NCBI GenBank assembly: GCA_020349945.1
Contig: CP070704.1
Location: 509,700 to 573,699 of the forward strand
Direction of reading: 5' to 3'
From: Deltaproteobacteria bacterium
GTDB taxonomy: Bacteria > Desulfobacterota > DSM-4660 > Desulfatiglandales > B25-G16
Length of the DNA stretch: 64,000 nucleotides
Made by a program: the position numbers and the translations under genes
Shown: piece after piece, positions 6,389 to 64,000 of the stretch
Layout: each line of letters opens with the position of its first letter
Numbering within the stretch: the first letter of the stretch is position 1
Notes under the pieces: generated by a model
Databases searched by the model: none
The model's input: the letters and a program-made list of their open reading frames with translations, nothing else
Told to the model about the DNA's origin: nothing

Positions 6389-7879
6389 ATGCCATTAATG
6401 ACACCAGGAGAATTCGAGGAATCTCTAAAGGACCTGAAGCCCAGGGTCTTTATGAACGGGGAAAAGGTGGGCAATATCCTTGAAAATAGGAACACCCGAA
6501 CGGTTGTGGAAGCCAATAAGGCAAGCTATGCCTGGGCCTTAGACCCGAAATATAAGGATATCATGACATGCTATTCTCCCCTTATCAGTGATGTGGTCAA
6601 TCGCTATACCCATGTGAGTGCAAGCGCTGAGGATCTGGTAAAGAAGGCTGAAGCAGGCACCTTTACCGCAGAGATGCTGGGGACGTGTATATACCGTTGC
6701 GTAGGGTATGATGCCTTCCACTCTCTAGCCAGTACTACCTGGGAGATGGACAGGGATTTGGGGACAGGGTATCATCCCCGCTTCATAGAGTACCTCAAGA
6801 TGGTTCAGAGAAAAGATCTATCCGTGGCTGGAGCGCTTACCGAGCCGAGAGGTAAACGCAGCCAAAAGACCTTGGACTGGCCCGACCCTTATCTTTCACT
6901 CAAGGTGGTCGACAAAAACAAGGAGGGTATCGTCGTTCGTGGGGCAAAGATAAATATCAGCGGCGCCTTTGCCAGCCATGAGCTTGTTGTTCTACCCCAG
7001 GCTGCCCACTTCGAGGGTGAGCAAGATTACGCCATAGCATTTGCCACACCACCCGATGCCGAGGGCATTACCTATGTGTGCCAGTATTCGCCATATTCCG
7101 CCGAGAGAGATATGGCCGAAGATTTAGAGGAACTGGGAAATCCCGTCTTCGGCCAGCGAGAGACATCCATGGTCATATTCGACAACGTATTTGTTCCATG
7201 GGAAAGGGTATTTCACTGCGGGGAGTACGGCTATTCCATCAAGTTTGTGACACGATTCGCCAAGACCCACCGCATGACCTGTGGTGGGACATGTAAGGTG
7301 GGTTTCATGAATCAGATCATTGGGGCCGCAAAACTGATTCAAGAATACAAGGGTTTAGACAAGGCAACACACATCAATGACCAGTTGATGGAGATGGTCG
7401 TTTTGAGGGAAACAGGTCGGGCCTGTGGTATGGCCGCTGCCACCAGGGGCGTGGAAGAACCTCCCGGATCAGGCGTCTTTTTGCCGGATGAGCTAATGGG
7501 TAATGTTTCCAAGCTGAACATCTGCAATGCCTTCTGGAGGGTTATGGCGCTGGCCGGAGACATCGGCGGTGGCCTAATCGTGACAATGCCTTCAATCAAA
7601 GAATTGAAAAATCCCAAGGTGAAGGATTACGTGGAAGAATTTTACAGCTTCGGCTCTGATGAACCCACGGAAAATATCATGAAGGTTCATAAACTCCTCC
7701 AGTACTGGACGGCTGGCCAACATGGTGTAGCTACGTGGCATGGGGCCGGACCGGTCATGACTCAGAAGATTATGCTACAGAGGGTCATAGACTACGAGCG
7801 CGAAAAAAATATTGTCAGGCAGACATTAAAACTCAAGGAAAAGAGGGCAAAAGACAGTAAGGGTGCATCAGAGAGCTAA
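6389..7879 (+). CDS. 4-hydroxybutyryl-CoA dehydratase / 4-hydroxyphenylacetate hydroxylase family protein (AbfD-like)
   Basis: 496 aa. CxxxC motif (GTCIYRCVG) and a later His/Cys cluster (THRMTCGGTC) match the AbfD [4Fe-4S] ligand pattern recalled from memory. Overall length and N-terminus are typical of the family. Confidence 0.75.
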   Translation: MPLMTPGEFEESLKDLKPRVFMNGEKVGNILENRNTRTVVEANKASYAWALDPKYKDIMTCYSPLISDVVNRYTHVSASAEDLVKKAEAGTFTAEMLGTCIYRCVGYDAFHSLASTTWEMDRDLGTGYHPRFIEYLKMVQRKDLSVAGALTEPRGKRSQKTLDWPDPYLSLKVVDKNKEGIVVRGAKINISGAFASHELVVLPQAAHFEGEQDYAIAFATPPDAEGITYVCQYSPYSAERDMAEDLEELGNPVFGQRETSMVIFDNVFVPWERVFHCGEYGYSIKFVTRFAKTHRMTCGGTCKVGFMNQIIGAAKLIQEYKGLDKATHINDQLMEMVVLRETGRACGMAAATRGVEEPPGSGVFLPDELMGNVSKLNICNAFWRVMALAGDIGGGLIVTMPSIKELKNPKVKDYVEEFYSFGSDEPTENIMKVHKLLQYWTAGQHGVATWHGAGPVMTQKIMLQRVIDYEREKNIVRQTLKLKEKRAKDSKGASES

Positions 7880-7892
7880 AAAGGGGATAATA

Positions 7893-9815
7893 ATGAAAGA
7901 TGCTATGGTCGTATTCCAGCCCTCTGGAATGAGGGGAAAAGTGCCTTTAGGTGAGACCCTCATAGAGGCTTCCCGAAGACTTGGAGCTGATATTGAATCC
8001 CTTTGTGGAGAAAGGATGCTATGCGGCAAGTGCAAGGTAAGGATTGAGGAGGGAAGGGAAAATCTTACCGAATTTCAGAGAGAAGAGGGAAACTTTATAT
8101 CTTTAGCTGAAAGAAAGGGAGGCCTTCGTCTTGCGTGTGCAGCTAAAATAACCGGAGATGTCCTTGTATTTGTGCCTGAGGAGACCCGGGCATCAAAGCA
8201 GGCAATAAGAAAGGCCCCTACCAAAAGGCCGATAAAGATCGATCCAGCGGTAAAACTGTACCCTCTGACCCTAAAAGAGGCCTCTATCGAGGATCCTTTA
8301 GGGGACTGTGAGAGACTCAACCAGGCCCTGGAAGAGCGATATGGATTGAAGAATATGAGCCTTGACCTTGAGGTGCTCAAGTCACTGGGCACAATCATAA
8401 GGAAAGGGAACTGGGAGATCACAGTTTCTATATGGAACAGCAGAGAGCTGATCAGAGTCCAGCCAGGAAGGGTAACCAATGCCTACGGACTGGCTGTCGA
8501 TATAGGGACTACAACAGTAGCCGGCTATCTTTGTAGCCTTGCTACCGGTGAGGTTTTGGCAACCTATTCCTTGATGAATCCCCAGGTGACCTATGGAGAG
8601 GATGTTATGTCACGAATAGCCTATCATATGATGCATCCAGACGATGGTTTACACAAGATGAGTCAAGCTATTGTTGAGGCCCTTAACAGCCTTGTTGTAA
8701 ACACAGTGAAAGAAACCAGCCTTACACCTGATGACATTGAAGACATGACAGTAGTTGGCAATACTGCTATGCACCACATCCTTTTAGGGATCAATCCTGA
8801 ATATGTAGGAACTGCCCCATTCCCTCCAGCCATCCATCACTCCATTGATGTTAAGGCCAGGGATATAGGAATCCGGATTAATCCATCATCCTATATCCAT
8901 ATTCTGCCCATTGAGGCTGGTTTTGTGGGAGCAGACAATGTAGGTCTATTAATCGCCGAAGAACCTTACAAAAAGAAGCCTATATGTTTGCTCATTGATA
9001 TCGGCACCAATGGTGAGCTCGTTCTTGGGAACAGGGACAAGCTTATGTCCTCATCATGTGCTACTGGCCCGGCCCTTGAAGGTGCACAGCTCACCTTTGG
9101 CATGAGGGCAGCCCCTGGTGCCATTGAACGGGTTATAATCGACCCAGAGACCCATGAGGTGAACTTCAAGGTAATTGGCAGGGATGAATGGTCCAAATAT
9201 TCCAGACCCGGGGAGATAAAGGCAAAGGGAATCTGCGGCACTGGTGTTCTTGACAGTTTGGCTGAACTTTACAGGGCCGGTATCATCTCAAAAAGCGGTG
9301 CCTTTAGCAAAACGCAAAGATCAAAGAGGTACAGGATAAACCAAGAAAATAATCAACCAGAGTTTGTGATTGCGTGGAAGGAGGAGACCTCTATCGGTCG
9401 GGACATCACCATCTCCCTTAAGGATATCAGGCAGATCCAATTGGCTAAGGGGGCTATCTACACTGGTTGCAAGCTCATGATGAGGAAGAGAGGAATAGAT
9501 AGTGTGGATAGAATTATTTTGGCTGGGGCCTTTGGGAGCTATGTCGATCCAGAAAAGGCTTTAATCATAGGCATGATCCCCGATTGCGATCTAAAGAAGG
9601 TATATTCTGTGGGTAATGCAGCAGGAGATGGGGCGAGGATTGCCCTTTTAAACAAAAACAAAAGGGCCGAGGCAGATCGCATCGCCAAACAAGTGGAATA
9701 CATAGAACTCACAGTAGAGGAGGACTTTCAAATGGAATTCACGTATTCCCTGCAACTTCCACACATGAGGGATACATTTCCTCACCTTAAAGGGATAGTT
9801 CCCGATGATAGCTAA
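7893..9815 (+). CDS. [2Fe-2S] ferredoxin-domain / ASKHA ATPase-domain protein (RACo-like, DUF4445 family)
   Basis: N-terminal plant-type 2Fe-2S motif (CGERMLCGKCKV). ASKHA phosphate motifs (GLAVDIGTTTV, LLIDIGTNGE). I prefer ATG 7893, preceded by AAAGGGG, over the GTG at 7863 given in the ORF track. Confidence 0.7.
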   Translation: MKDAMVVFQPSGMRGKVPLGETLIEASRRLGADIESLCGERMLCGKCKVRIEEGRENLTEFQREEGNFISLAERKGGLRLACAAKITGDVLVFVPEETRASKQAIRKAPTKRPIKIDPAVKLYPLTLKEASIEDPLGDCERLNQALEERYGLKNMSLDLEVLKSLGTIIRKGNWEITVSIWNSRELIRVQPGRVTNAYGLAVDIGTTTVAGYLCSLATGEVLATYSLMNPQVTYGEDVMSRIAYHMMHPDDGLHKMSQAIVEALNSLVVNTVKETSLTPDDIEDMTVVGNTAMHHILLGINPEYVGTAPFPPAIHHSIDVKARDIGIRINPSSYIHILPIEAGFVGADNVGLLIAEEPYKKKPICLLIDIGTNGELVLGNRDKLMSSSCATGPALEGAQLTFGMRAAPGAIERVIIDPETHEVNFKVIGRDEWSKYSRPGEIKAKGICGTGVLDSLAELYRAGIISKSGAFSKTQRSKRYRINQENNQPEFVIAWKEETSIGRDITISLKDIRQIQLAKGAIYTGCKLMMRKRGIDSVDRIILAGAFGSYVDPEKALIIGMIPDCDLKKVYSVGNAAGDGARIALLNKNKRAEADRIAKQVEYIELTVEEDFQMEFTYSLQLPHMRDTFPHLKGIVPDDS

Positions 9816-12579: not shown

Positions 12580-13755
12580 ATGTTTATTCCCATTGTCTCT
12601 TTAGAGCAGGCAAAAAAGGAGAATAGAAAGGTGAGGCCTTTAAGGAACACCCTAACGAGCTCAATGATCGTGTGCCTTGTTTTTCTCATCCATCCCGCTG
12701 ACGCCCAGGCGAGAGACGTTGCTGAAAGTTCCTATCATGGACAACTTGGAAGAAGTCCAGCCCTTGGTGGGTGGGGTAATGGTCTTGGGATGCTGGAAAA
12801 GTGGGACGCCTTTAATAATTTTAGCTTTGAAAAACAGGGGAGGATTAGAGGGTGGAAGCAAAAGTGCGGTCAATGTCATACCTCCACCTACAGGGATCCT
12901 GCAACTGGAAAGACTGACTGCCGGCTCTGCCATAAGACCAAGGATGGCAAAGGGAAACCAACAGTTGCCCAATGCGCAAGGTGCCACCACACCTATGGTA
13001 CGCTCAAGAGAGGGGATATGTTTGATGAAGAACATGATATCCATATAGCAGTGGGAATGAGGTGCCATGATTGTCATGAGAGATTAACAGATCCCCATAG
13101 CAATCACCAGTTTGCCAAGGGATATGCCATTGATACAACAGAGAACACCATGGAGGGGACCCTTTCCTGCACAAAATGCCACGAGGAAAAGCCCCATACC
13201 GGTCTTTCTGAAGGTGAAATCCTGGACGGCAAACATGTTGAGAGAATAGCATGTGTAACCTGCCATACCGGTCCGAGGCCGGGCAAAGCCATAAAGAGCA
13301 GAAGCTGGAATAAATATACCAAAGACGGCAATCCGGTAACAGAAAAAAGACAACCTGGATGGATTCCAAAACATAAATGGTACATTGGAAGGAAGTTAGG
13401 TCACCTTCCTATTCTAGGGGCCACGGATCTCATGGCCAAAATCTATCCCTTTAATGTGGTTGCCGTAACCTGGTTCATCGAAAGAGGTGATGCTGAACCT
13501 GAAGATGTCATCATTGTCCCTGAGGTCAAGGCGGCAGATGCCAATAATGATGGAGAAACCACGGTTGAGGAGATGCGGACATACGAGAAAGGAAAATACA
13601 GGGATGCCGCATTGGTTACCAAAGAGTTCAGTTTCAGCGTAACCCACTCCGTTGTTCCAAGTGAACAAGCCTTCAATTGCAAAGATTGTCATGGAAAGGA
13701 TGCCTCCGTGCTCAACTGGAAAGAACTTGGATATGATGGCGATCCCTACTATTGA
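12580..13755 (+). CDS. heptahaem c-type cytochrome, exported
   Basis: Seven CxxCH motifs (CGQCH, CRLCH, CARCH, CHDCH, CTKCH, CVTCH, CKDCH) and a hydrophobic signal region. The true start may be the GTG at 12631, which lies after AAGGAG. Confidence 0.85.
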   Translation: MFIPIVSLEQAKKENRKVRPLRNTLTSSMIVCLVFLIHPADAQARDVAESSYHGQLGRSPALGGWGNGLGMLEKWDAFNNFSFEKQGRIRGWKQKCGQCHTSTYRDPATGKTDCRLCHKTKDGKGKPTVAQCARCHHTYGTLKRGDMFDEEHDIHIAVGMRCHDCHERLTDPHSNHQFAKGYAIDTTENTMEGTLSCTKCHEEKPHTGLSEGEILDGKHVERIACVTCHTGPRPGKAIKSRSWNKYTKDGNPVTEKRQPGWIPKHKWYIGRKLGHLPILGATDLMAKIYPFNVVAVTWFIERGDAEPEDVIIVPEVKAADANNDGETTVEEMRTYEKGKYRDAALVTKEFSFSVTHSVVPSEQAFNCKDCHGKDASVLNWKELGYDGDPYY

Positions 13756-24678: not shown

Positions 24679-26460
24679 ATGGCTGGAGGATATGTAGGAA
24701 AGATCTTGGAGGTCGATCTGACTACCAAGACAATCAAGAAGACACCGTTGAATACGAAAGATGCGGAGATGTTCATCGGTGGAAGGGGCTTAGGGGCCAA
24801 GCTTCTCTGGGATCGAACCAAGCCGGGAGGACACTACCTGGATCCTGATACCCCGATCTGCTACATGAGCGGCCCGGTGAATGGTCTTCCGGCGCCGGGT
24901 GCTGCTCGACTGACCATCGTGACCAGGTCTGCATCGACGTTTCCCAAGAGCAATTCCAAACACACTGGTATCGTCCATACCAATTGTGGCGGTCGCTGGA
25001 CCCCGGAGCTGAAGTTTGCCGGATACGATGCCGTGATCGTCACCGGGGCCTCTGCTAGCCCGGTTGGCATTGCGATTGAAAACGACGATGTGAAGATCGT
25101 ACCTGCGGGTAAGTACTGGGGCATGGGTACCTATGACTTACAAGATGCCCTGGATGCGGACTTTGGTCGGCGCTATCAGACCGTCTACATCGGGCCGGCA
25201 GGAGAAAATTTGGTCAGGTACGCCAATATCCTGACGGAGATCCACCACGCCTGTGGCAGGGGTGGAAGCGGTGCGGTCATGGGTTCCAAGAAGCTCAAAT
25301 TCATCACCGTAAGAGGGACTAATGGTCTTTCCATCGACAATATGAGGACCTGGCAGGCTGCCAATAAAAAGGCGTGGGACGAGGTTATGTCCAGTGGCGG
25401 CTATAATGAATGGAAACGGTTGGGCACTGGCATGGTGGTGACCGGATCCAGCGACTGGGGCTCCGAGGCCGTGTATAACTTCAAGGAAGGCACCTACGTG
25501 TACGCCGATGATATAAGCACGGAGAAGGCGCTCAGGAACCTCTGGGTCGGTAATCACGCATGCTTCATGTGTCCCCTCGCCTGCCTGCACAGGGGCGTGG
25601 TCCGAAAAGGTCGTTTCTCCGGGATGACCCATGATGGTCCTGAGTATGAGGGTGTCATGATGGGCGCCAACTGTGGCGTCAGGGACCTTGCCGGGTGGCA
25701 GGCCAACATTGCAGCGGCCGATGACTATGGCCTCTGTTATATCTCCATGGGCAATGTGATCGGCTTCGTCATGGAATGCTTTGAGAAGGGCGTCATCACC
25801 GCAGCAGACCTGGATGGCATCTCGCTGAAATGGGGCGATGTGGATGCGATGCTTGAGATCCAGAAGAAGGTGGCCTATGGCACTGGTTGTGGAAAGCTTC
25901 TGGGCCAGAACCTGCGAGCCCTGGTAGCGGCATGGGGCAAAGGCTGTGGAGACTACGCCATGGAGACCAAGGGCCAGGGATTCGCGGCCTGGAATGTGAG
26001 GGCCTTAAAGGGCTTTGAAACCACCTATGCCACTGCCAACCGGGGGGCCGATCATCTCGAGGGCGTTGATATCTCTATCCAGAACACGCGGATAATGAAC
26101 GACGCCCTTGGCATCTGCCTCTTTCAGCAACTCTGTGGGCTCACACCTGAGACCATGAAGGATCTGCTCAATGCAACTACCGGTTACAGGCTCGGCATGG
26201 ACGATTACTGGAAGACTGCGGAGCGCCTGTTTACCTTGGAGCGGAGCTTCAACGTGCGTGAGGGCTTTAGCAGGGATGACGACACTATCCCTCCACGAGC
26301 GTTTAAGGAAGCCCTGTCCGTTGGGGCCGCCAAAGGGGCCATCCTGAACTATAAGGACTTCAACCAGCTGTTGGATAAGTACTATAAGGATCGGGGCTGG
26401 GATAACAAGGGTATTCCCACAAAGGCCCGATTGAGCGAGTTAGGGTTGGATTTCGTTTAG
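24679..26460 (+). CDS. aldehyde:ferredoxin oxidoreductase family tungstoenzyme (AOR-1)
   Basis: 593 aa. AOR N-terminal domain (KILEVDLT, GGRGLGAKLLW) and the AOR alpha-helical domains. No signal peptide of its own. Confidence 0.9.
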   Translation: MAGGYVGKILEVDLTTKTIKKTPLNTKDAEMFIGGRGLGAKLLWDRTKPGGHYLDPDTPICYMSGPVNGLPAPGAARLTIVTRSASTFPKSNSKHTGIVHTNCGGRWTPELKFAGYDAVIVTGASASPVGIAIENDDVKIVPAGKYWGMGTYDLQDALDADFGRRYQTVYIGPAGENLVRYANILTEIHHACGRGGSGAVMGSKKLKFITVRGTNGLSIDNMRTWQAANKKAWDEVMSSGGYNEWKRLGTGMVVTGSSDWGSEAVYNFKEGTYVYADDISTEKALRNLWVGNHACFMCPLACLHRGVVRKGRFSGMTHDGPEYEGVMMGANCGVRDLAGWQANIAAADDYGLCYISMGNVIGFVMECFEKGVITAADLDGISLKWGDVDAMLEIQKKVAYGTGCGKLLGQNLRALVAAWGKGCGDYAMETKGQGFAAWNVRALKGFETTYATANRGADHLEGVDISIQNTRIMNDALGICLFQQLCGLTPETMKDLLNATTGYRLGMDDYWKTAERLFTLERSFNVREGFSRDDDTIPPRAFKEALSVGAAKGAILNYKDFNQLLDKYYKDRGWDNKGIPTKARLSELGLDFV

Positions 26461-26678: not shown

Positions 26679-26845
26679 GGGGTGTGTTTGTGGATGACAT
26701 CAAGAGGTTCTTGAAAGAGGATATTCAAGAACCGGCCTATCATATAATTCACAATAGTTAGGAGGTGATATGGGGTCGCGAACATCATGAGCAAGTCATA
26801 GGCCTCTTTTGAAAAACCTTTAACCCGTATATGGAGGTATCAGAG

Positions 26846-28585
26846 ATGAGCAAAATCCTACGCGTCAACATGACGGATCTCACAGCAAGGTATCAGGATG
26901 TGCCCGTGAAGTACAAGCTCATGGGTGCGCGTTGGCTTACCTCGTCCATGGTGTCCGATGAGGTCGAGCCCACCTGCCACCCCCTGGGGCCTACCAATAA
27001 GTTGGTGTTTGCCCCGGGTATCGTTACTGGCACGGCCGCGCCTACCAGCGCCCGTATCTCGGTGGGCAGCAAGTCGCCACTGACCGGCACGATCAAGGAA
27101 TCCAATGCTGGCACCAAGTTCAGCCCCATGCTGGCCAAGCTGGGCATCAAGGCCGTCGTGGTGGAAGGCCAGCCCAAGGAGGGTATGTGGTACCTTCTGG
27201 AAGTCACCAAGGACGGCGCTCGACTCTTGCCAGCCACTGATCTGGCCGGCAAAGGGGCCTACGCCACCACTAACGCCCTGATCAAGAGGTACGGCAAAGT
27301 GGGTGTGTGCTGTATCGGCCTGGCCGGCGAGATGAAAATGGCCATGGCCGGCGTGTGCTTTAACGACCTGAGCGATCGCGCTAGTCGTTACTCGGGTCGC
27401 GGTGGGCTGGGGGCAGTGATGGGGACCAAGGGCCTTAAGGCCATGGTCGTGGACAACAAAGACGGCCCTGGCGTCAGTATCGCTAACCAAGAACTCTTCG
27501 GTCAGGGTTGCAAGAAACTAACCGAGGCCCTACAAACCCACGCCATAACCAAGCCCAAGGGGGCCCTAAACACTTACGGCACGGCGGTCTTGATCAACAT
27601 CCTGAACGAGGCCGGTGGTCTGCCCACCCGCAACTTCGCCAGCGGAACCTTTGAGGGCGCGCCCAAGATCGCCGGCGAGGCGATTTTCGAAGGCAACAAG
27701 CAGCGCCTGGGCAAGGAGCTTTACAACCACGCCTGCAGCCCTGGCTGCATCATCCAGTGCTCCAACACCTGGCATAACCCTGACGGCAGCGAACAGGTCT
27801 CCTGTCAGGAATACGAGTCAGTGTGGGCCTTTGGGGCCAACTGCGGCATCGATGATCTGGACGTGACTGCTGAGCTGATCCGTATCAGCAACGACCTGGG
27901 CGTTGACACCATTGAGTCCGGCGGCACCATCGCCGTGGCCATGGAGGGCGGCCTGGCCAAGTTCGGTGACGGGCAAAAGGCCATTGAGCTGATGCAGGAG
28001 ATCGGTAAGGGCACACCCCTGGGCCGCATCCTGGGGCAGGGTGCCGCCTTCACCGGCAGGGCCTTGGGGTTAGTCCGGGTGCCAGGAGTCAAAGGTCAGA
28101 ACATGCCTGCCTACTCCCCACGGGCGGTAAAAGGCATTGGCGTGACCTATATGACCAGCACCCAGGGAGCCGACCACACTATCGGCTACACCATCGCTCC
28201 GGAGATTCTCTCTGTGGGCGGCAAGGCTGATCCCTTGAGCCCTGAGGGGAAGGCTGAGTTGTCGCGTAACTTCCAGATAGCCACTGCCTTCCTGGACTCT
28301 ACTGGCTACTGCGTGTTCATTGCCTTCGCTATCCTGGATATCCCTAAAGGGTTTGAGGGGATGGTACAGAGCTGTGCCGCAGTGCTGGGGACTAACTGGA
28401 CGGCCGATGACGTAACCCGCATCGGCAAGGAGATCCTCAGGAAGGAGCGGGCCTTTAACGAGGCTGCCGGCTTCACCAGGGCGGATGACCGCCCCCCAGA
28501 GTTCATGCGCTATGAAGCACTCCCGCCCCACAACAAGCTCTGGGACATACCCAATAAGGCACTGGACAGCGTCTGGGATTTCTAG
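26846..28585 (+). CDS. aldehyde:ferredoxin oxidoreductase family tungstoenzyme (AOR-2)
   Basis: About 580 aa of classical AOR layout (KILRVNMTDL, SVGSKSPLTG, GGLGAVMG). Visibly GC3-rich. ATG 26846 follows GGAGG. Confidence 0.9.
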   Translation: MSKILRVNMTDLTARYQDVPVKYKLMGARWLTSSMVSDEVEPTCHPLGPTNKLVFAPGIVTGTAAPTSARISVGSKSPLTGTIKESNAGTKFSPMLAKLGIKAVVVEGQPKEGMWYLLEVTKDGARLLPATDLAGKGAYATTNALIKRYGKVGVCCIGLAGEMKMAMAGVCFNDLSDRASRYSGRGGLGAVMGTKGLKAMVVDNKDGPGVSIANQELFGQGCKKLTEALQTHAITKPKGALNTYGTAVLINILNEAGGLPTRNFASGTFEGAPKIAGEAIFEGNKQRLGKELYNHACSPGCIIQCSNTWHNPDGSEQVSCQEYESVWAFGANCGIDDLDVTAELIRISNDLGVDTIESGGTIAVAMEGGLAKFGDGQKAIELMQEIGKGTPLGRILGQGAAFTGRALGLVRVPGVKGQNMPAYSPRAVKGIGVTYMTSTQGADHTIGYTIAPEILSVGGKADPLSPEGKAELSRNFQIATAFLDSTGYCVFIAFAILDIPKGFEGMVQSCAAVLGTNWTADDVTRIGKEILRKERAFNEAAGFTRADDRPPEFMRYEALPPHNKLWDIPNKALDSVWDF

Positions 28586-28970: not shown

Positions 28971-29906
28971 TCAACATTTCCCCCCATTCTGCCTGACCTT
29001 CAGATAAGTAAAGAACTTGCCCCAGAACCAGAAGGCCCGCCTGTGGAACCACTTCCCAATCGCCGACCCAAAGAAAAGCCATCCCAATCTCCGATGATAT
29101 CTCACAAATCGGCTGAACCGGGAGACCGAGATCTTCCCTCTCCTCACGTACCAGCACCGAGGTGCCTTTTTTGAATCCCATTTCCCCGAGGCTATCTTCA
29201 AAATCTCCAATGCCGCAAGGCTGGCCATCATCCATTCAACAGGGCAAAAGAGGGCAAGAGGTCGACGCCCTTTAAAATATTCCCAGAACCAGTCCACCCG
29301 CCAATCACCTGCTGTAATGAGCCTATATTGGGCACACTGGTAAACCGTGGAGCGCATTACCCGGCGCAGACCCTCATAATCAAGCTCCGGTATGCCTAAG
29401 ACCTTCTCTATGGTCGGACCCTTCTCTTTGAATACGCTAACCCATCCCATTGAGCCTGAGGGCAAGCATAGAACAGCGGGTTTTCCATGCCTTCTCGCTG
29501 CACGAAAAAGCAGGATGCTATAAGCCAGATCGTCTACGGCCGGGATAACAATATCGGCTGTGGGGATCAATTGATTCATCTCTTCCTCTGAGGGGAGATG
29601 ACTATGGATGTTGACCTTCGAATTCGGGTTGATCGAGAGGATGGTATCCCGGATTTGTGCGACCTTACTTCGGCCAATGGTATCTGAAAAGCAGCAGATC
29701 TGTCGATTCATGTCAGAAGGAACATAGACCCCCTCCCCTGAGATAATAAACTCCTCTACCCCGCTGCGGGCCAAGATCACAGCGATGGTTTCTCCTGTGC
29801 CAGTATCTCCTCCGATCAACACACGCGTATGCCTTATGCGCTGCTGCTCGCCCTCGGTGAAGACTCCATAATTTCTTTGAAATAATGTCCTGTAATCCAC
29901 ATCCAT
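28971..29906 (-). CDS. ThiF/HesA/MoeB-family E1-like protein, paralogue 1 (altered glycine loop)
   Basis: 311 aa. NMNRQ-type block (DMNRQICCF) and AVDD. The glycine loop reads GGDTGTGE instead of GxGxxG. No CxxC pairs. The C-terminal tail is rich in Trp, Phe and Arg. Confidence 0.8.
   Translation of the reverse strand: MDVDYRTLFQRNYGVFTEGEQQRIRHTRVLIGGDTGTGETIAVILARSGVEEFIISGEGVYVPSDMNRQICCFSDTIGRSKVAQIRDTILSINPNSKVNIHSHLPSEEEMNQLIPTADIVIPAVDDLAYSILLFRAARRHGKPAVLCLPSGSMGWVSVFKEKGPTIEKVLGIPELDYEGLRRVMRSTVYQCAQYRLITAGDWRVDWFWEYFKGRRPLALFCPVEWMMASLAALEILKIASGKWDSKKAPRCWYVRRGKISVSRFSRFVRYHRRLGWLFFGSAIGKWFHRRAFWFWGKFFTYLKVRQNGGKC
28981..29108 (-). repeat. direct-repeat copy B (3' end of intact E1-like gene)
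   Basis: Partner of 26551-26678. The two copies bracket the AOR-2 plus beta-grasp segment. Confidence 0.8.
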
Positions 29907-29928
29907 GAAAAGGTCTAGTTGAGTGGGC

Positions 29929-30891
29929 TTAAGGTCTGGCGGGATGCTGAGGTCTACGTTGCTCGCGGCGTTTCACCCATGGATAATAGAGCCTCCACCA
30001 TGCCGCTTGGAGTCCCTCCTGAAGGGGGCCGAAGCGACTCTGGAACACCCACCACATGAACCTCCTTTGCCATACCAGTAAGGTTTGCAGAGAGGGTCCA
30101 TTGATGCGATTGATCCGGATCTTTTCCCTGGTGATGCTCCAGTATCTCGGCGAGGCAACGAGCTTCCACTTTCCGCTGAAGAATTTCAAGGCCTCCAGGG
30201 CCCCGAGGGAGGAAGCGAGCCATACAACAGGACAGATCTGGGCTAGGGGGAATCCTTCCTCCATGAATCCCCGGTAGTAATCGATTCGCCAATCCGCAAT
30301 CGGGACATAGAAATATGTCCAAAACTTGTACTTTCGGATCTGTGCCGTTTCTCGAAGTTCCTCGTACGTAGCAAGTTTCGGGATACCCTCGATATCCTCT
30401 GGAGAGGGCCTATCAGGCGGTATGATGCTCACATTTGCCCAGGTTCCCGAGGGAACGACCATCAAGGCCGTCTTGCCCAGTTTCCGGGCATCCCGAAAAA
30501 CGAAGATGCTGAATGAAAAATCATCGGCGGCTGGAAAGACCAAGTCGACTTGGGGAATCAGCTGAGCGATCTCGGAATGGTTCAACAGATCTTCATGGAC
30601 CTCCACCTGGGCCTCGGGGTTGATCCGCAAAATCTGTTCTTTGATAACCTGCGCCTTGTTTCGGCCGACTGTATCAAGAAAGCAGGCAATCTGCCGGTTC
30701 ATGTTCGCTGGCTCGTAGCGATCGAACTCTATGAGCACAAAGCGGCTCACCCCTGAACGGGCCAGCATGATGGCTACCGATCCACCAATCCCCCCACAGC
30801 CTACGATCAGAATACTGGCGTGCCGGATCCTTTGCTGTTCGTCCCTTGAAAAGATTCCATAGTTCCTCTGAAACAGCTCTTCATAATGCAT
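29929..30891 (-). CDS. ThiF/HesA/MoeB-family E1-like protein, paralogue 2 (canonical GxGxxG)
   Basis: 320 aa. VGCGGIGGS, NMNRQIACF and AADD blocks. No CxxC pairs. Trp/Arg-rich C-terminal tail. The start overlaps the stop of the upstream membrane-protein gene by 11 nt. Confidence 0.8.
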   Translation of the reverse strand: MHYEELFQRNYGIFSRDEQQRIRHASILIVGCGGIGGSVAIMLARSGVSRFVLIEFDRYEPANMNRQIACFLDTVGRNKAQVIKEQILRINPEAQVEVHEDLLNHSEIAQLIPQVDLVFPAADDFSFSIFVFRDARKLGKTALMVVPSGTWANVSIIPPDRPSPEDIEGIPKLATYEELRETAQIRKYKFWTYFYVPIADWRIDYYRGFMEEGFPLAQICPVVWLASSLGALEALKFFSGKWKLVASPRYWSITREKIRINRINGPSLQTLLVWQRRFMWWVFQSRFGPLQEGLQAAWWRLYYPWVKRREQRRPQHPARP

Positions 30892-32084: not shown

Positions 32085-33266
32085 TTAGATGATTATCTTG
32101 ATATCACCATCGTTTCTGGCATAGCCTATGCCCAGTTTAACCGCATGGGCTATCTGGTTAACATGCCAGGCGTCCATGGTGATCTTATTCTGGACCGTAG
32201 GATACCATTCTTGCAGGAGCTTAATCCCCCATACATCATTGGCCACTTGATCGCCAGAGGCAAGGACAAAGCCAGGTTTCACCATCTCGCCATGAGAGGG
32301 TCCACCGCTGATAAATGACCTGCGCCCATCCATGACAATCAGGTCAGGACGGAATGGCAGATTGATCTCAGCCGCCTGCTGGCCCACAAAGACGTGATTG
32401 AAGTTGTGGAGGTGTCCTCCCCTATCTGCACGGTGGAGTGTTCCCACTGACAGCTTCAGGCTCTGGGTAATGTGGCCCAAGAAATGGGTCTTCATGACAG
32501 GCGTATAGATGATCTTATCGAAATCCCGAAAGTCCGCAGGATATGCAACCGTCCCGTCACCACCGCCGAATCTTCCCAGAAATTCCGCCTTCTCGTTTGT
32601 GATATTCATCCACTTCATCTTATCCCAGTCATGAAGGGCGACACCATTAGCTTGACACACCTTGTCATAGCCCACAATCTTGATAACCCTTTCCGTGGGT
32701 CCCCATGGTCCACACGAATCGGCCACGGTCAAGTTTGCGTACCCCTCATCCTGGAGCACCTTGATCAGGGCGTCGAGGAAGTTGGGGTCAGTGCCCCCAC
32801 CTGGCCATGGATCAGCAGTATTCATATTGGGTTTGATCATGATCTTATCTGTCTTCTTAAGGGCCTTCCCAAAACCGCCAATCTTCTTGACCGCCTTGCT
32901 TATATCCCCTTTCAGGTCTTTATCCAGTGGCGCGGAGCTAACGATGCTGACCAGGGACTTGCCTCCCTCAGAGTAGTAGTTTGGGTGCAGATGGGACCAT
33001 TTAACCGGCTTCCCACCGTTTATCATCTCCTCAGGGTCTTTATCGAAATACCCCTTTGGAAGCGGTGCGTTACCGATAAACTCACCGTACGCATCAAGCT
33101 GTACATCCCTCATCTGCCAAACACCTGTCTGTGCAGGCTGATCCAGATCATCTACAGCATGGGCATTTTTCCTCAAACCCAAGAGACCAACGGCAGCAAC
33201 ACCTGCTCCACAATACTTGACAACGTCCTTAAAAAAATTCCTGCGTGTTACGTCCTTGAAATTCAT
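32085..33266 (-). CDS. Tat-signal DUF362-domain protein
   Basis: TRRNFFKD twin-arginine signal. DUF362 blocks (IMIKPNMNT, PVMKTHFLG, LIVMDGR, ASGDQVANDVWG). Confidence 0.8.
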   Translation of the reverse strand: MNFKDVTRRNFFKDVVKYCGAGVAAVGLLGLRKNAHAVDDLDQPAQTGVWQMRDVQLDAYGEFIGNAPLPKGYFDKDPEEMINGGKPVKWSHLHPNYYSEGGKSLVSIVSSAPLDKDLKGDISKAVKKIGGFGKALKKTDKIMIKPNMNTADPWPGGGTDPNFLDALIKVLQDEGYANLTVADSCGPWGPTERVIKIVGYDKVCQANGVALHDWDKMKWMNITNEKAEFLGRFGGGDGTVAYPADFRDFDKIIYTPVMKTHFLGHITQSLKLSVGTLHRADRGGHLHNFNHVFVGQQAAEINLPFRPDLIVMDGRRSFISGGPSHGEMVKPGFVLASGDQVANDVWGIKLLQEWYPTVQNKITMDAWHVNQIAHAVKLGIGYARNDGDIKIII

Positions 33267-33651: not shown

Positions 33652-34311
33652 CTAAAAAGGCCAGAGAAAACAACAGCCTCTTCTTTGAAATTCTCTTTCG
33701 CAGGAGGCCAATTGGCCCTTATATGTCCTTGCCCTACCTTCAACCTTACGGGCTACCTGTAATAACCATGCCTTTTTTCGATAAGACTTTCGGTTAAACC
33801 CTCCATGACCCTCATGATAGGCTAAATAGAGATGGTATGGATCCTTTTTTGATATCCTGCACCTGAGGTAACTCAAATGGCAGTACCATCCAATAAAATC
33901 AAGGCTATCCTCAAAATCATCCCTATCAGCCCCTGTGTTGCCCCTGCTCTTACGGTACTCTTCCCATGTCTCATTACCTGCCTGTGTATATCCATAAGCG
34001 GAAGAGGGGCGAGGACCAGGGAAAATCCACAGACAACTACCGCGGGGTGGTCTGGCATCAGCCCTGAATTTTGATTCCTGATGGATAATGGCCATCAGAA
34101 CAGGTATGGGTATACCCCACCTCCTGGAGGACCCATGTGCGCTCTTGTACCATTTTGGATTTTCCCTGAAGACCTCGCAAATATTGTAGATATGTTTGGG
34201 TTGGGGAATGGTAGCACACCCATGAAAAAGGATGAGCACAAAGCAGGCAAAAGATATAGGAGCAAATCTGTAGAGGTCTTTCCGCCTTCTAACCTTAGCC
34301 ACCCTTTTCAA
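33652..34311 (-). CDS. lipoprotein with lytic transglycosylase (SLT)-like domain
   Basis: Lipobox-like LFHGC. IIHQESKF catalytic-Glu block, then AYGYTQ. Confidence 0.65.
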   Translation of the reverse strand: MKRVAKVRRRKDLYRFAPISFACFVLILFHGCATIPQPKHIYNICEVFRENPKWYKSAHGSSRRWGIPIPVLMAIIHQESKFRADARPPRGSCLWIFPGPRPSSAYGYTQAGNETWEEYRKSRGNTGADRDDFEDSLDFIGWYCHLSYLRCRISKKDPYHLYLAYHEGHGGFNRKSYRKKAWLLQVARKVEGRARTYKGQLASCEREFQRRGCCFLWPF

Positions 34312-34993
34312 ACCTAGCCTTTACCCGGATGGTAATCTCAGGCCTTTCAAGATAATTGGTCTTCAGCTTCAAAAAACCCCGGTAGGTCCCCACTGTGTTG
34401 GGGATGCTGGTAAAATGGATCCTGAATTCCCTCCCTGCCTCAACCTCCTCTATACTGTAAGTCACTTGTTTGCTGAGGCTAAAATGGCTTGGTTCAAGCT
34501 TCAGGGGTTGGTTTTCTCCCGCCCTGACTCTGACGGTCTTGGTGATTTCTCGATCCGCCGTTCCCCTCAGGTAAACGTATCTGGGAGATAGATGGATGGG
34601 TACCTTAACAAAGGCCTTAATGGTTAATACTTCAACATTCTTGCGTGGGTCATTGGTGTAGACCGTGGCTTCTTTCCGGATGTCATCCCTGTAACCTCTG
34701 GTCTTTATCCTTAAGGTAATCTTTCCCTCCCCTCCGGGGGGGATGGTCCTGTCAAAGCGGGCCACTGCACAGCCTCAACCAGGGCTGACCTTTTTTATCT
34801 CAAGGGTACGGTCACCCACATTACGAACCGTAAAGGTGTGCTCAATAATCTCGCCCTGTTTAACCTGTTGAGCATCAAAATATTTATCCTCTAAAACCAT
34901 CCTTGGCCCAATGACCTGCTGGGCCCAACCTGCGGTGAGGTTGAGGATGATCCAGGCAGTCAGCAAAGAGCTCCCATACAGTAGCTTTATCAT
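34295..34993 (-). CDS. exported DUF1573-like protein with in-frame TGA (candidate selenoprotein, otherwise a pseudogene)
   Basis: The 72-aa and 156-aa ORFs are in the same frame (699 nt = 233 codons), separated by a single TGA. The joined sequence reads ...LEIKKVSPG-[TGA]-GCAVARFDRTIPPGGEGKITLRI, matching the DUF1573 xCGCxxx...PGxxGxI pattern. Confidence 0.6.
34775..34777 (-). other. in-frame UGA aligned with the first Cys of the DUF1573 CGC motif (candidate Sec codon)
   Basis: Read directly: ggt TGA ggc tgt gca gtg on the minus strand. Confidence 0.5.
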
Positions 34994-35190: not shown

Positions 35191-35808
35191 CTATTCTACA
35201 ACCACAAGTGTTACTCGGCGGTTTATTGCCCGGTTGCTGCTGTTGGTATTGTCCGCAACAGGCTTAAACTCACCGTAGGAAAAGGTGTTCATGCGGTGCA
35301 GTGGTATGCCCTGCTGTGTGTGCAGGTAGGAATAGACTGCCTCAGCTCTGGCCTGACCCAGCCTCAAGTTATACTCTTCAGGGCCGATGCTGTCAGTATG
35401 TCCTTGGATCTCGATGTAGACATCTCTGTTTTCTGCCTTCAAGCGTCCAGCAAGTCCGTCGAGGGCCGCTCTTGCTTCTTTGGAAAGATCGCTCTTGTCA
35501 AAGCCGAAATGGACCGCCTCATCCGTGAACGTCACCTCATAAAGGAGCTTGCCCTCGGCAACCTTGCCCGCCTCCACAGCCCGCGCGAGCGCCTCCTCGC
35601 CCAGCGCGAAGAGCTGCTCGTTTTTTTCCGCGGCCGCCTCCTTCAATTTGGCGATTTCCATCTGATTGGCCTCAACCTGCTCCTGGGTCTCTTCGATCCT
35701 CTGAGCGATCTGCTCCCTGACGTACTTCTGAGTGGCACACCCGGTCACCCCAAACCACACAATTCCTGTCATGACCGCAAAGGCCAAAAGGGATTTCTTC
35801 ATAACCAC
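35191..35808 (-). CDS. OmpA-family lipoprotein with coiled-coil linker
   Basis: Lipobox VTGCA. C-terminal OmpA domain (HTDSIGPEEYNLRLGQARAEAV, NRRV). Confidence 0.85.
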   Translation of the reverse strand: MVMKKSLLAFAVMTGIVWFGVTGCATQKYVREQIAQRIEETQEQVEANQMEIAKLKEAAAEKNEQLFALGEEALARAVEAGKVAEGKLLYEVTFTDEAVHFGFDKSDLSKEARAALDGLAGRLKAENRDVYIEIQGHTDSIGPEEYNLRLGQARAEAVYSYLHTQQGIPLHRMNTFSYGEFKPVADNTNSSNRAINRRVTLVVVE

Positions 35809-63579: not shown

Positions 63580-64000
63580 ATGGCCCGGTTGAGGAACTTC
63601 TTTGCAACCCGATGGGGGATTAGTGGGGTCGGGGCCTTTATTGGAGTGCTTGCCCCGCTCTTACAGAAATGGGGCAATCCCGGAAATATGGGCATTTGTG
63701 TGGCCTGCTTCGAGAGGGATATCGCAGGGGCCATTGGAATCCATCGCGCATCTGTTGTTCAGTACATGAGACCTGAGATTATCGGTTTTGTCCTAGGCTC
63801 ATTGATCGCCGCCCATCTCTTCAGGGAGTTTCGACCGCGAGCCGGCTCCGCCCCTATTGCGAGATTTGTGTTGGGTGCCTTTGCCATGATCGGGGCCCTG
63901 GTCTTCCTGGGATGCCCGTGGCGCGCCCTGTTAAGGCTTGCCGGCGGTGATGGAAACGCCATTTTCGGGCTGCTCGGGCTGATCTTCGGCATCTGGATCG
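63580..64000 (+). CDS. YedE/YeeE-family membrane protein (sulfur/selenium-related transporter family), 5' partial
   Basis: My own translation: MARLRNFFATRWGISGVGAFIGVLAPLLQKWGNPGNMGICVACFERDIAGAIG... This matches the YedE-type GNxGxCxACFxRD block. The ORF runs off the window end and is absent from the ORF track. Confidence 0.65.
   Translation, partial: MARLRNFFATRWGISGVGAFIGVLAPLLQKWGNPGNMGICVACFERDIAGAIGIHRASVVQYMRPEIIGFVLGSLIAAHLFREFRPRAGSAPIARFVLGAFAMIGALVFLGCPWRALLRLAGGDGNAIFGLLGLIFGIWI

Follow-up and report, generated by a model that had tools for sequence, protein, structure and literature searches.

The 64,000-nt stretch analysed here (contig CP070704.1 of the Deltaproteobacteria bacterium assembly GCA_020349945.1, positions 509,700–573,699; hereafter the window) carries on its minus strand, at 34993–34295, what is very probably one intact gene of the known OS_HP2 family of DUF1573 proteins, whose in-frame UGA at codon 73 is read as selenocysteine (Sec). 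A first-pass annotation of the window had proposed this gene as a candidate new selenoprotein. Judging from the sequence comparisons presented below, selenocysteine is almost certainly the correct call and the in-frame TGA is real. The family itself is not new: its first description dates from 2007, and NCBI maintains a naming model for it. The gene is thus one more member of this family, and the comparative data refine what was known of it rather than amounting to a discovery.

Translation of the minus strand yields a single frame of 232 codons, closed by a terminal TAA, in which the sole internal stop is the TGA at 34777–34775. The open reading frames (ORFs) of 72 aa (34993–34775) and 156 aa (34765–34295) together make up this frame, confirming that they are parted only by that TGA, and the reading across the stop is as had been given, ...EIKKVSPG-(stop)-GCAVARFDRTIPPGGEGKITL...; in the joined protein the residues around the UGA are ...KKVSPG-U-GCAVARFDRTIPPGGEG... 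Layouts of the type ORF-TGA-ORF are by themselves common, and a six-frame reading of the window contains 23 TGAs so placed. The one at codon 73 stands out because homology crosses the stop: in profile scans with the internal stop entered as Cys, the joined protein matched Pfam DUF1573 (PF07610) with 72.7 bits (cutoff 26.1) over residues 34–129, a span that includes codon 73, and also the HYDIN/VesB immunoglobulin-like (Ig-like) family PF22544 over residues 30–127. The remaining 22 TGAs with open frames on both sides were rejected as selenoprotein genes, being gene ends or lying in non-coding frames, and no other plausible gene with an in-frame TGA was found among the six-frame TGAs of the window.

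The assignment to OS_HP2 comes from NCBIfam model NF041425, 'OS_HP2 family (seleno)protein', for which the joined protein scored 107 bits over residues 35–130, above the curated cutoff of 100. The motif PG-[U/C]-GC...PPGGEG was present at a conserved position in all 159 loci retrieved in the scans described below. OS_HP2 ('Olavius symbiont's hypothetical protein 2') was described in 2007 as a new selenoprotein family from the delta-1 and delta-4 symbionts of Olavius algarvensis (Zhang and Gladyshev, PMC1976440); the Global Ocean Sampling (GOS) survey of 2008 recorded it as 'OS_HP2, pfam07610, UxC' and counted 2 forms with Sec and 354 homologues with Cys (PMC2398784), and 'DUF1573 domain-containing protein, UGC' is listed as a selenoprotein family in reviews of 2022 (PMC9312934) and 2026 (PMC13188914). 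The suggestion that DUF1573 was not an established selenoprotein family therefore fails, because the match to NF041425 is above its cutoff and DUF1573 selenoproteins have been in the literature since 2007. The value that remains lies in the correction of the annotation, in the description of a clade that is almost entirely of the Sec form, and in codon-level support for a selenocysteine insertion sequence (SECIS) element of slightly non-canonical spacing over the PPGGEG codons.

A protein search returned 296 matches, and about 100 of the best 120 were gene calls of 147–171 aa that begin just past the TGA, because gene callers stop at UGA. Few matches were full-length; at the column aligned with codon 73, seven of these have Cys (P0054, P0055, P0056, P0060, P0064, P0065 and P0076) and four have 'W' (P0002, P0005, P0006 and P0059). 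The DNA behind P0002 (locus L165, position 357) reads TGA, and its translation with code 11 does not give the stored protein, so that the 'W' in these Joint Genome Institute gene calls is an artefact of translating TGA with genetic code 4. The OS_HP2 family is thus systematically mis-annotated in public data, mostly as fragments of ca. 156 aa and in some cases with Trp for UGA. Recognition of the full selenoprotein of 232 residues mends the split or truncated automatic annotation.

The UGA codon is conserved almost without exception. A genome scan, with one genome per species, identified 208 related loci, and all of the best 80 that were compared (80/80; 44–95% protein identity) have TGA at exactly the equivalent of codon 73. 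They originate from metagenome-assembled genomes of Desulfobacteraceae, Desulfobacterales and Desulfatiglandales, and from the cultured strain NaphS2 (locus L071). A metagenome scan gave 78 loci with TGA and one with TGC (n = 79), even though it had been deliberately seeded with Cys forms. Combining both scans, TGA occupies the same codon in 158 of 159 homologous loci, with protein identities of 41–95%. The alignment at this column, which the first-pass annotation had recommended as a check, thus contains 158 TGA loci, to which are opposed five TGC forms in all (L081, L161, L162, L163 and L164), four of them fetched on purpose. What the Cys-containing homologues have in the UGA column is the first Cys of C-G-C, in agreement with the earlier placement of the UGA at the first Cys of the DUF1573 CGC motif.

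Both sides of the TGA evolve as coding sequence. Averaged over sequence pairs, the differences at codon positions 1, 2 and 3 amounted to 0.37, 0.27 and 0.62 in the 40 codons upstream, and to 0.27, 0.25 and 0.56 downstream of the TGA, and only one of 146 loci has an in-frame stop within the 40 upstream codons; this codon-position pattern and the rarity of upstream stops indicate that both halves form one gene under purifying selection. The genetic code is standard, as TGA closes 20 of 50 window ORFs and is the commonest stop among them. Sequencing error, pseudogenization and reassignment of the code are in practice excluded by these comparisons.

The bulged hairpin that had been noticed about 32 nt past the UGA was found at 34743–34724, on the minus strand, as UCCCCCCC-GGA-GGGG(A)GGGA; it begins 31 nt past the UGA and spans 31–50 nt downstream of it. 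In an alignment of the 75 nt from the UGA onward, comprising 78 loci, the RNAalifold consensus was a single hairpin in columns 35–54, which correspond to these same window positions. The family consensus register has a 4-nt loop, N-G-G-N (34736–34733), with two invariant G's, closed by a 7-bp stem with a bulge; at minimum energy, the window sequence itself folds with a loop of three nucleotides, GGA, and an 8-bp stem with a bulge (−13.3 kcal/mol). In the consensus hairpin 97% of the alignment cells are paired, with U-A compensatory changes at pairs 39–48 and 38–49, and in some genomes pairing is kept through amino-acid changes, such as Pro to Leu together with Glu to Lys in L046 and Pro to Ser with a shift of the stem register in L066.

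As a control for the inherent complementarity of Pro-Pro-Gly-Gly codons, the codons used in the stem were set against those in the remainder of the same 143 genes. The stem codons were strongly constrained: Pro was encoded by CCC in 81% of cases at columns 37–39 (34% elsewhere in the same genes), and Gly by GGG in 85% at columns 46–48 (24% elsewhere) and by GGA in 84% at columns 52–54 (28% elsewhere). For the Gly codon in the loop (columns 43–45), GGG was used in only 2% of cases (24% elsewhere), and GGC, GGA and GGT were used about equally, so that this codon is unconstrained save for the avoidance of GGG. A strongly biased stem with a free loop codon is the pattern that would be expected under selection on RNA structure. 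The hairpins of the Cys forms, only five in number, are weaker on average, but one of them does not differ from the Sec-form hairpin.

According to a consensus model of bacterial SECIS elements, these have an apical loop of 3–9 nt, an upper stem of at least 4 bp, a G in the first two loop positions and a minimum free energy of −7.5 kcal/mol or lower, and in 'most' of them 16–37 nt separate the UGA from the apical loop (PMC13188914); around 13% of bacterial selenoprotein entries have no canonical SECIS (BSepDB). Comparison with these criteria supported the hairpin in part: loop size, stem length, loop G and energy all conform to the model, and the spacing, considered below, falls outside it. 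Between the UGA and the hairpin there is a weaker proximal helix (columns 14–19 with 29–34), in which 81% of the cells are paired and 17 cells are changed on both sides. In the window it folds with −5.7 kcal/mol and one mismatch, with a loop that lacks a conserved G, and it is a possible accessory part of the SECIS. A further hairpin adjoining the UGA (columns 4–18) was rejected as SECIS, since it showed no excess over shuffled sequences.

Three other explanations for the TGA were weighed. We give next to no credence to the idea that the gene is an artefact of faulty sequencing or assembly, or a pseudogene recently inactivated by mutation of a TGC or TGT Cys codon: one window alone would be compatible with a wrong base, and in rare homologues TGC does stand at the equivalent of codon 73, yet an identical TGA in 158 of 159 independently assembled loci, as divergent as 41–95% protein identity, and in-frame purifying selection on either side of it argue strongly otherwise. 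It is very improbable that the UGA is a true stop, separating an exported peptide of 72 residues from a protein of 156 residues started at the GTG at 34765. Most database entries of the family are indeed calls of ca. 156 aa from that GTG or ATG, and termination at UGA probably competes to some extent with Sec insertion. However, a division at this point would break one Ig-like domain apart between adjacent strands, the Cys-form homologues are continuous, and the 156-aa product would be left without a signal peptide. Furthermore, its 'start' is a conserved Val/Met codon three past the TGA that is not always a start codon, being TTA in L004, ACA in L017 and CTG in L020. Decoding of the UGA as Trp, Cys or Gly without selenium, through near-cognate suppression or an altered code, is likewise very unlikely. 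The Trp of four public calls and the fact that Sec machinery was not observed in the 64-kb window would favor it; against it stand the standard code of the window and the code-4 origin of the 'W', the classical Sec/Cys pair formed with the first Cys of C-G-C, a downstream hairpin under RNA-level selection, and the presence in the window of a YedE-family gene, a selenium-transporter marker.

Reading of codon 73 as selenocysteine has, for its part, several observations to contend with, concerning either the decoding machinery or the hairpin as a SECIS. ARAGORN found no tRNA genes, including that for tRNA-Sec, in the 64-kb window, and a Pfam scan of 30 other ORFs of the window (ca. 20 smaller ORFs fell outside it) revealed no selA, selB or selD, although the absence of sel genes says little, given that the genome measures several megabases and the window 64 kb. 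The papers cited above describe the family from sequence analysis, and we found no report of experimental selenium incorporation for any OS_HP2 protein. As to the hairpin, its energy is not exceptional when compared to dinucleotide shuffles (z = −1.15), and neither is that of the 81-nt region significant (z = 0.26), so that its support rests on comparative data. Some of its ability to pair is a necessary consequence of the Pro-Pro-Gly-Gly codons, and the codon-bias statistics take related sequences as independent, which inflates the nominal P-values. The loop begins 38 nt (consensus register) or 39 nt (window fold) past the UGA, which exceeds the 16–37 nt range by 1–2 nt; Cys form L161, one of only five compared, carries a hairpin identical to that of the Sec form; and an Rfam scan of the window matched no family.

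Several genes of the window concern selenium or the metabolism of its host. The YedE-family gene that had been indicated at the window end is there: the 5′ part of a gene for a putative selenium transporter (63580–64000, plus strand), cut by the window end, matched TIGR04112 with 208.6 bits (cutoff 200). It is preceded by a gene for a LysR-type regulator (62524–63417, plus strand). The large selenoproteomes ascribed to deltaproteobacterial lineages likewise agree with published data, as the Desulfobacterota hold the largest known among bacteria. The genes for a multihaem cytochrome c (12580–13755) and a CdhD-like delta subunit of CO dehydrogenase/acetyl-CoA synthase (58711–59880), both on the plus strand, fit an anaerobic genome of the sulfate-reducer type. 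Also on the plus strand there are two tandem genes for aldehyde:ferredoxin oxidoreductases of the AOR family (24679–26460 and 26831–28585), and an unusual pairing of a HpaB/4-hydroxybutyryl-CoA-dehydratase-like gene (6389–7879) directly followed by a gene of the RACo type (7863–9815), a reductive activator of corrinoid proteins with a 2Fe-2S domain.

Read from its sequence, the N-terminus of the joined protein looks like a Sec-type (secretory) signal peptide, as had been suggested, and export is probable; the N-termini of the homologues are likewise basic-hydrophobic and end in A-x-A-like sites. The structure was modeled with AlphaFold2 on a natural Cys-form homologue, P0055, which is 51% identical to the window protein. 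The model, with a predicted local distance difference test score (pLDDT) of 89.7, consists of two all-beta sandwich domains; homologues P0003, P0004 and P0031 have an extra tandem copy of the C-terminal one. The C-G-C of P0055, corresponding to U-G-C in the window protein, is situated in a short turn between strands 65–72 and 76–81, with the PPGG loop next to it. From this location, the motif is predicted to lie at the surface, at an end of the first domain, and not to form a buried structural disulfide. A Foldseek search with the model retrieved HYDIN/ASH-type Ig domains and the uncharacterised Porphyromonas gingivalis structure 2qsv, and a sequence search of the PDB gave nothing meaningful.

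The probable sequence of events would begin with recruitment of SelB by the hairpin at 34743–34724, upon which SelB with Sec-tRNA(Sec) would read the UGA as selenocysteine. The product would then be exported by means of its N-terminal signal peptide and would fold into two tandem Ig-like beta-sandwich domains, with U-G-C presented beside the PPGG loop, in an exposed turn that links two strands of the first domain. As a guess of low confidence, the selenol/thiol pair might form a reversible selenylsulfide or bind soft metals or metalloids in the periplasm of a sulfate-reducing bacterium of the Desulfobacterales type. The joint proposal, that the two-domain OS_HP2 clade is almost obligately Sec-containing, exported and Ig-like, with a SECIS embedded in the PPGGEG codons just past the canonical spacing, is tentative, and we consider it rather unlikely to hold as a whole. 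If true, it would define a slightly non-canonical class of bacterial SECIS, in which one stretch of sequence is under tight dual constraint as protein and as RNA. Apart from it, the refinements to the family are modest: near-universal TGA in the clade, codon-level support for the hairpin, and a confident two-domain Ig-like model with an exposed U-G-C turn. The parts of the gene are collected in Table 1.

Table 1. Parts of the OS_HP2 gene and of its transcript in the window.
Feature	Position	Strand	Basis
Complete OS_HP2/DUF1573 selenoprotein gene (very probable): ATG at 34993, Sec-UGA as codon 73, TAA at 34297–34295	34295..34993	-	Single frame, PF07610 and NF041425
Probable Sec-type signal peptide (MIKLLYGSSLLTAWIILNLTAGWA / QQ), residues 1–24	34922..34993	-	Inferred from sequence
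DUF1573/HYDIN-VesB-like Ig domain, residues 34–129, with the UGA inside	34607..34894	-	PF07610 (34–129), PF22544 (30–127), NF041425 (35–130)
In-frame UGA, predicted selenocysteine codon, residue 73	34775..34777	-	TGA in 80/80 genome and 78/79 metagenome loci; TGC in Cys forms
Cys codon UGU, completing the U-G-C motif	34769..34771	-	Cys in all 134 unique Sec-form sequences
Conserved hairpin over the I-P-P-G-G-E-G codons, best SECIS candidate	34724..34743	-	RNAalifold consensus, pairing, codon bias, −13.3 kcal/mol
Weaker proximal helix (columns 14–19 with 29–34), possibly a lower or accessory SECIS part	34744..34764	-	Alignment pairing, folding
Second, C-terminal Ig-like beta-sandwich domain, residues 130–232	34298..34606	-	AlphaFold2 model of P0055; domain duplicated in P0003, P0004 and P0031

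The gene is flanked by a gene for an OmpA-family lipoprotein (35191–35808) and by a SLT_4 lytic-transglycosylase-like gene (33652–34311), both on the minus strand, the latter overlapping the end of the selenoprotein gene by 17 nt, and its surroundings are thus those of a cell-envelope locus. Further downstream, also on the minus strand (28971–30891 and 32085–33266), there are two adjacent genes of the ThiF family (E1-like), an ORF of 253 aa without a Pfam match, and a gene for a DUF362 protein that may have an export signal. A functional link with the OmpA, SLT_4, DUF362 and ThiF neighbours was rejected, as they recur only in the close relatives L003, L095 and L099. The commonest arrangement elsewhere is Rex - OS_HP2 - RNase HI - acidic zinc-ribbon protein, with Rex, RNase HI and the zinc-ribbon protein in 64, 62 and 52, respectively, of 165 loci; among loci L001–L160, examples are L049, L051, L023, L119, L059 and L065. 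Subsets of the 165 loci have as neighbours a rhodanese (23 loci), a DoxX/MauE-like protein (19) or an ACR3 arsenite-efflux protein (17), and the Cys forms are flanked by thioredoxins at L164 and by a rhodanese at L163. These occasional neighbours (rhodanese, DoxX/MauE-like, thioredoxin and ACR3) could point to a role in the periplasmic handling of sulfur, arsenic or metals.

Both beta-sandwich domains resemble the HYDIN, ASH and PapD-like Ig domains, and PDB 2qsv, at the level of fold, with just 10–15% identity; these structures lack the U/C-G-C motif and convey no functional information. Like the canonical bacterial SECIS of the E. coli fdhF type, the window hairpin is situated within the coding region shortly past the UGA and has a small loop with a G. 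It differs in its spacing (38–39 nt, compared to 16–37 nt) and in a stem built almost wholly of the Pro-Pro-Gly-Gly-Glu-Gly codons, which encode the most conserved peptide motif of the family. With the Cys-type DUF1573 proteins, for instance those from Bacteroidota and Planctomycetota, the window protein shares the Ig-like domain, the C-G-C site followed by the PGxxG loop and the common occurrence of N-terminal export signals, whereas they have Cys at the site where it is predicted to have Sec. The ratio of both forms is reversed in the two-domain clade of the window gene, with 158 TGA loci and one TGC locus in the two scans, as opposed to 2 Sec and 354 Cys forms in the GOS data (PMC2398784). 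With the OS_HP2 family as described, the window gene shares the pfam07610 domain, the U-G-C motif and the kind of host, deltaproteobacterial sulfate reducers now placed in the Desulfobacterota. Its neighbours are different, with OmpA upstream and SLT_4 downstream instead of the Rex - OS_HP2 - RNase HI order of some 60 other loci, but its TGA sits at the conserved codon of the family, and we found no family-defining difference between them.

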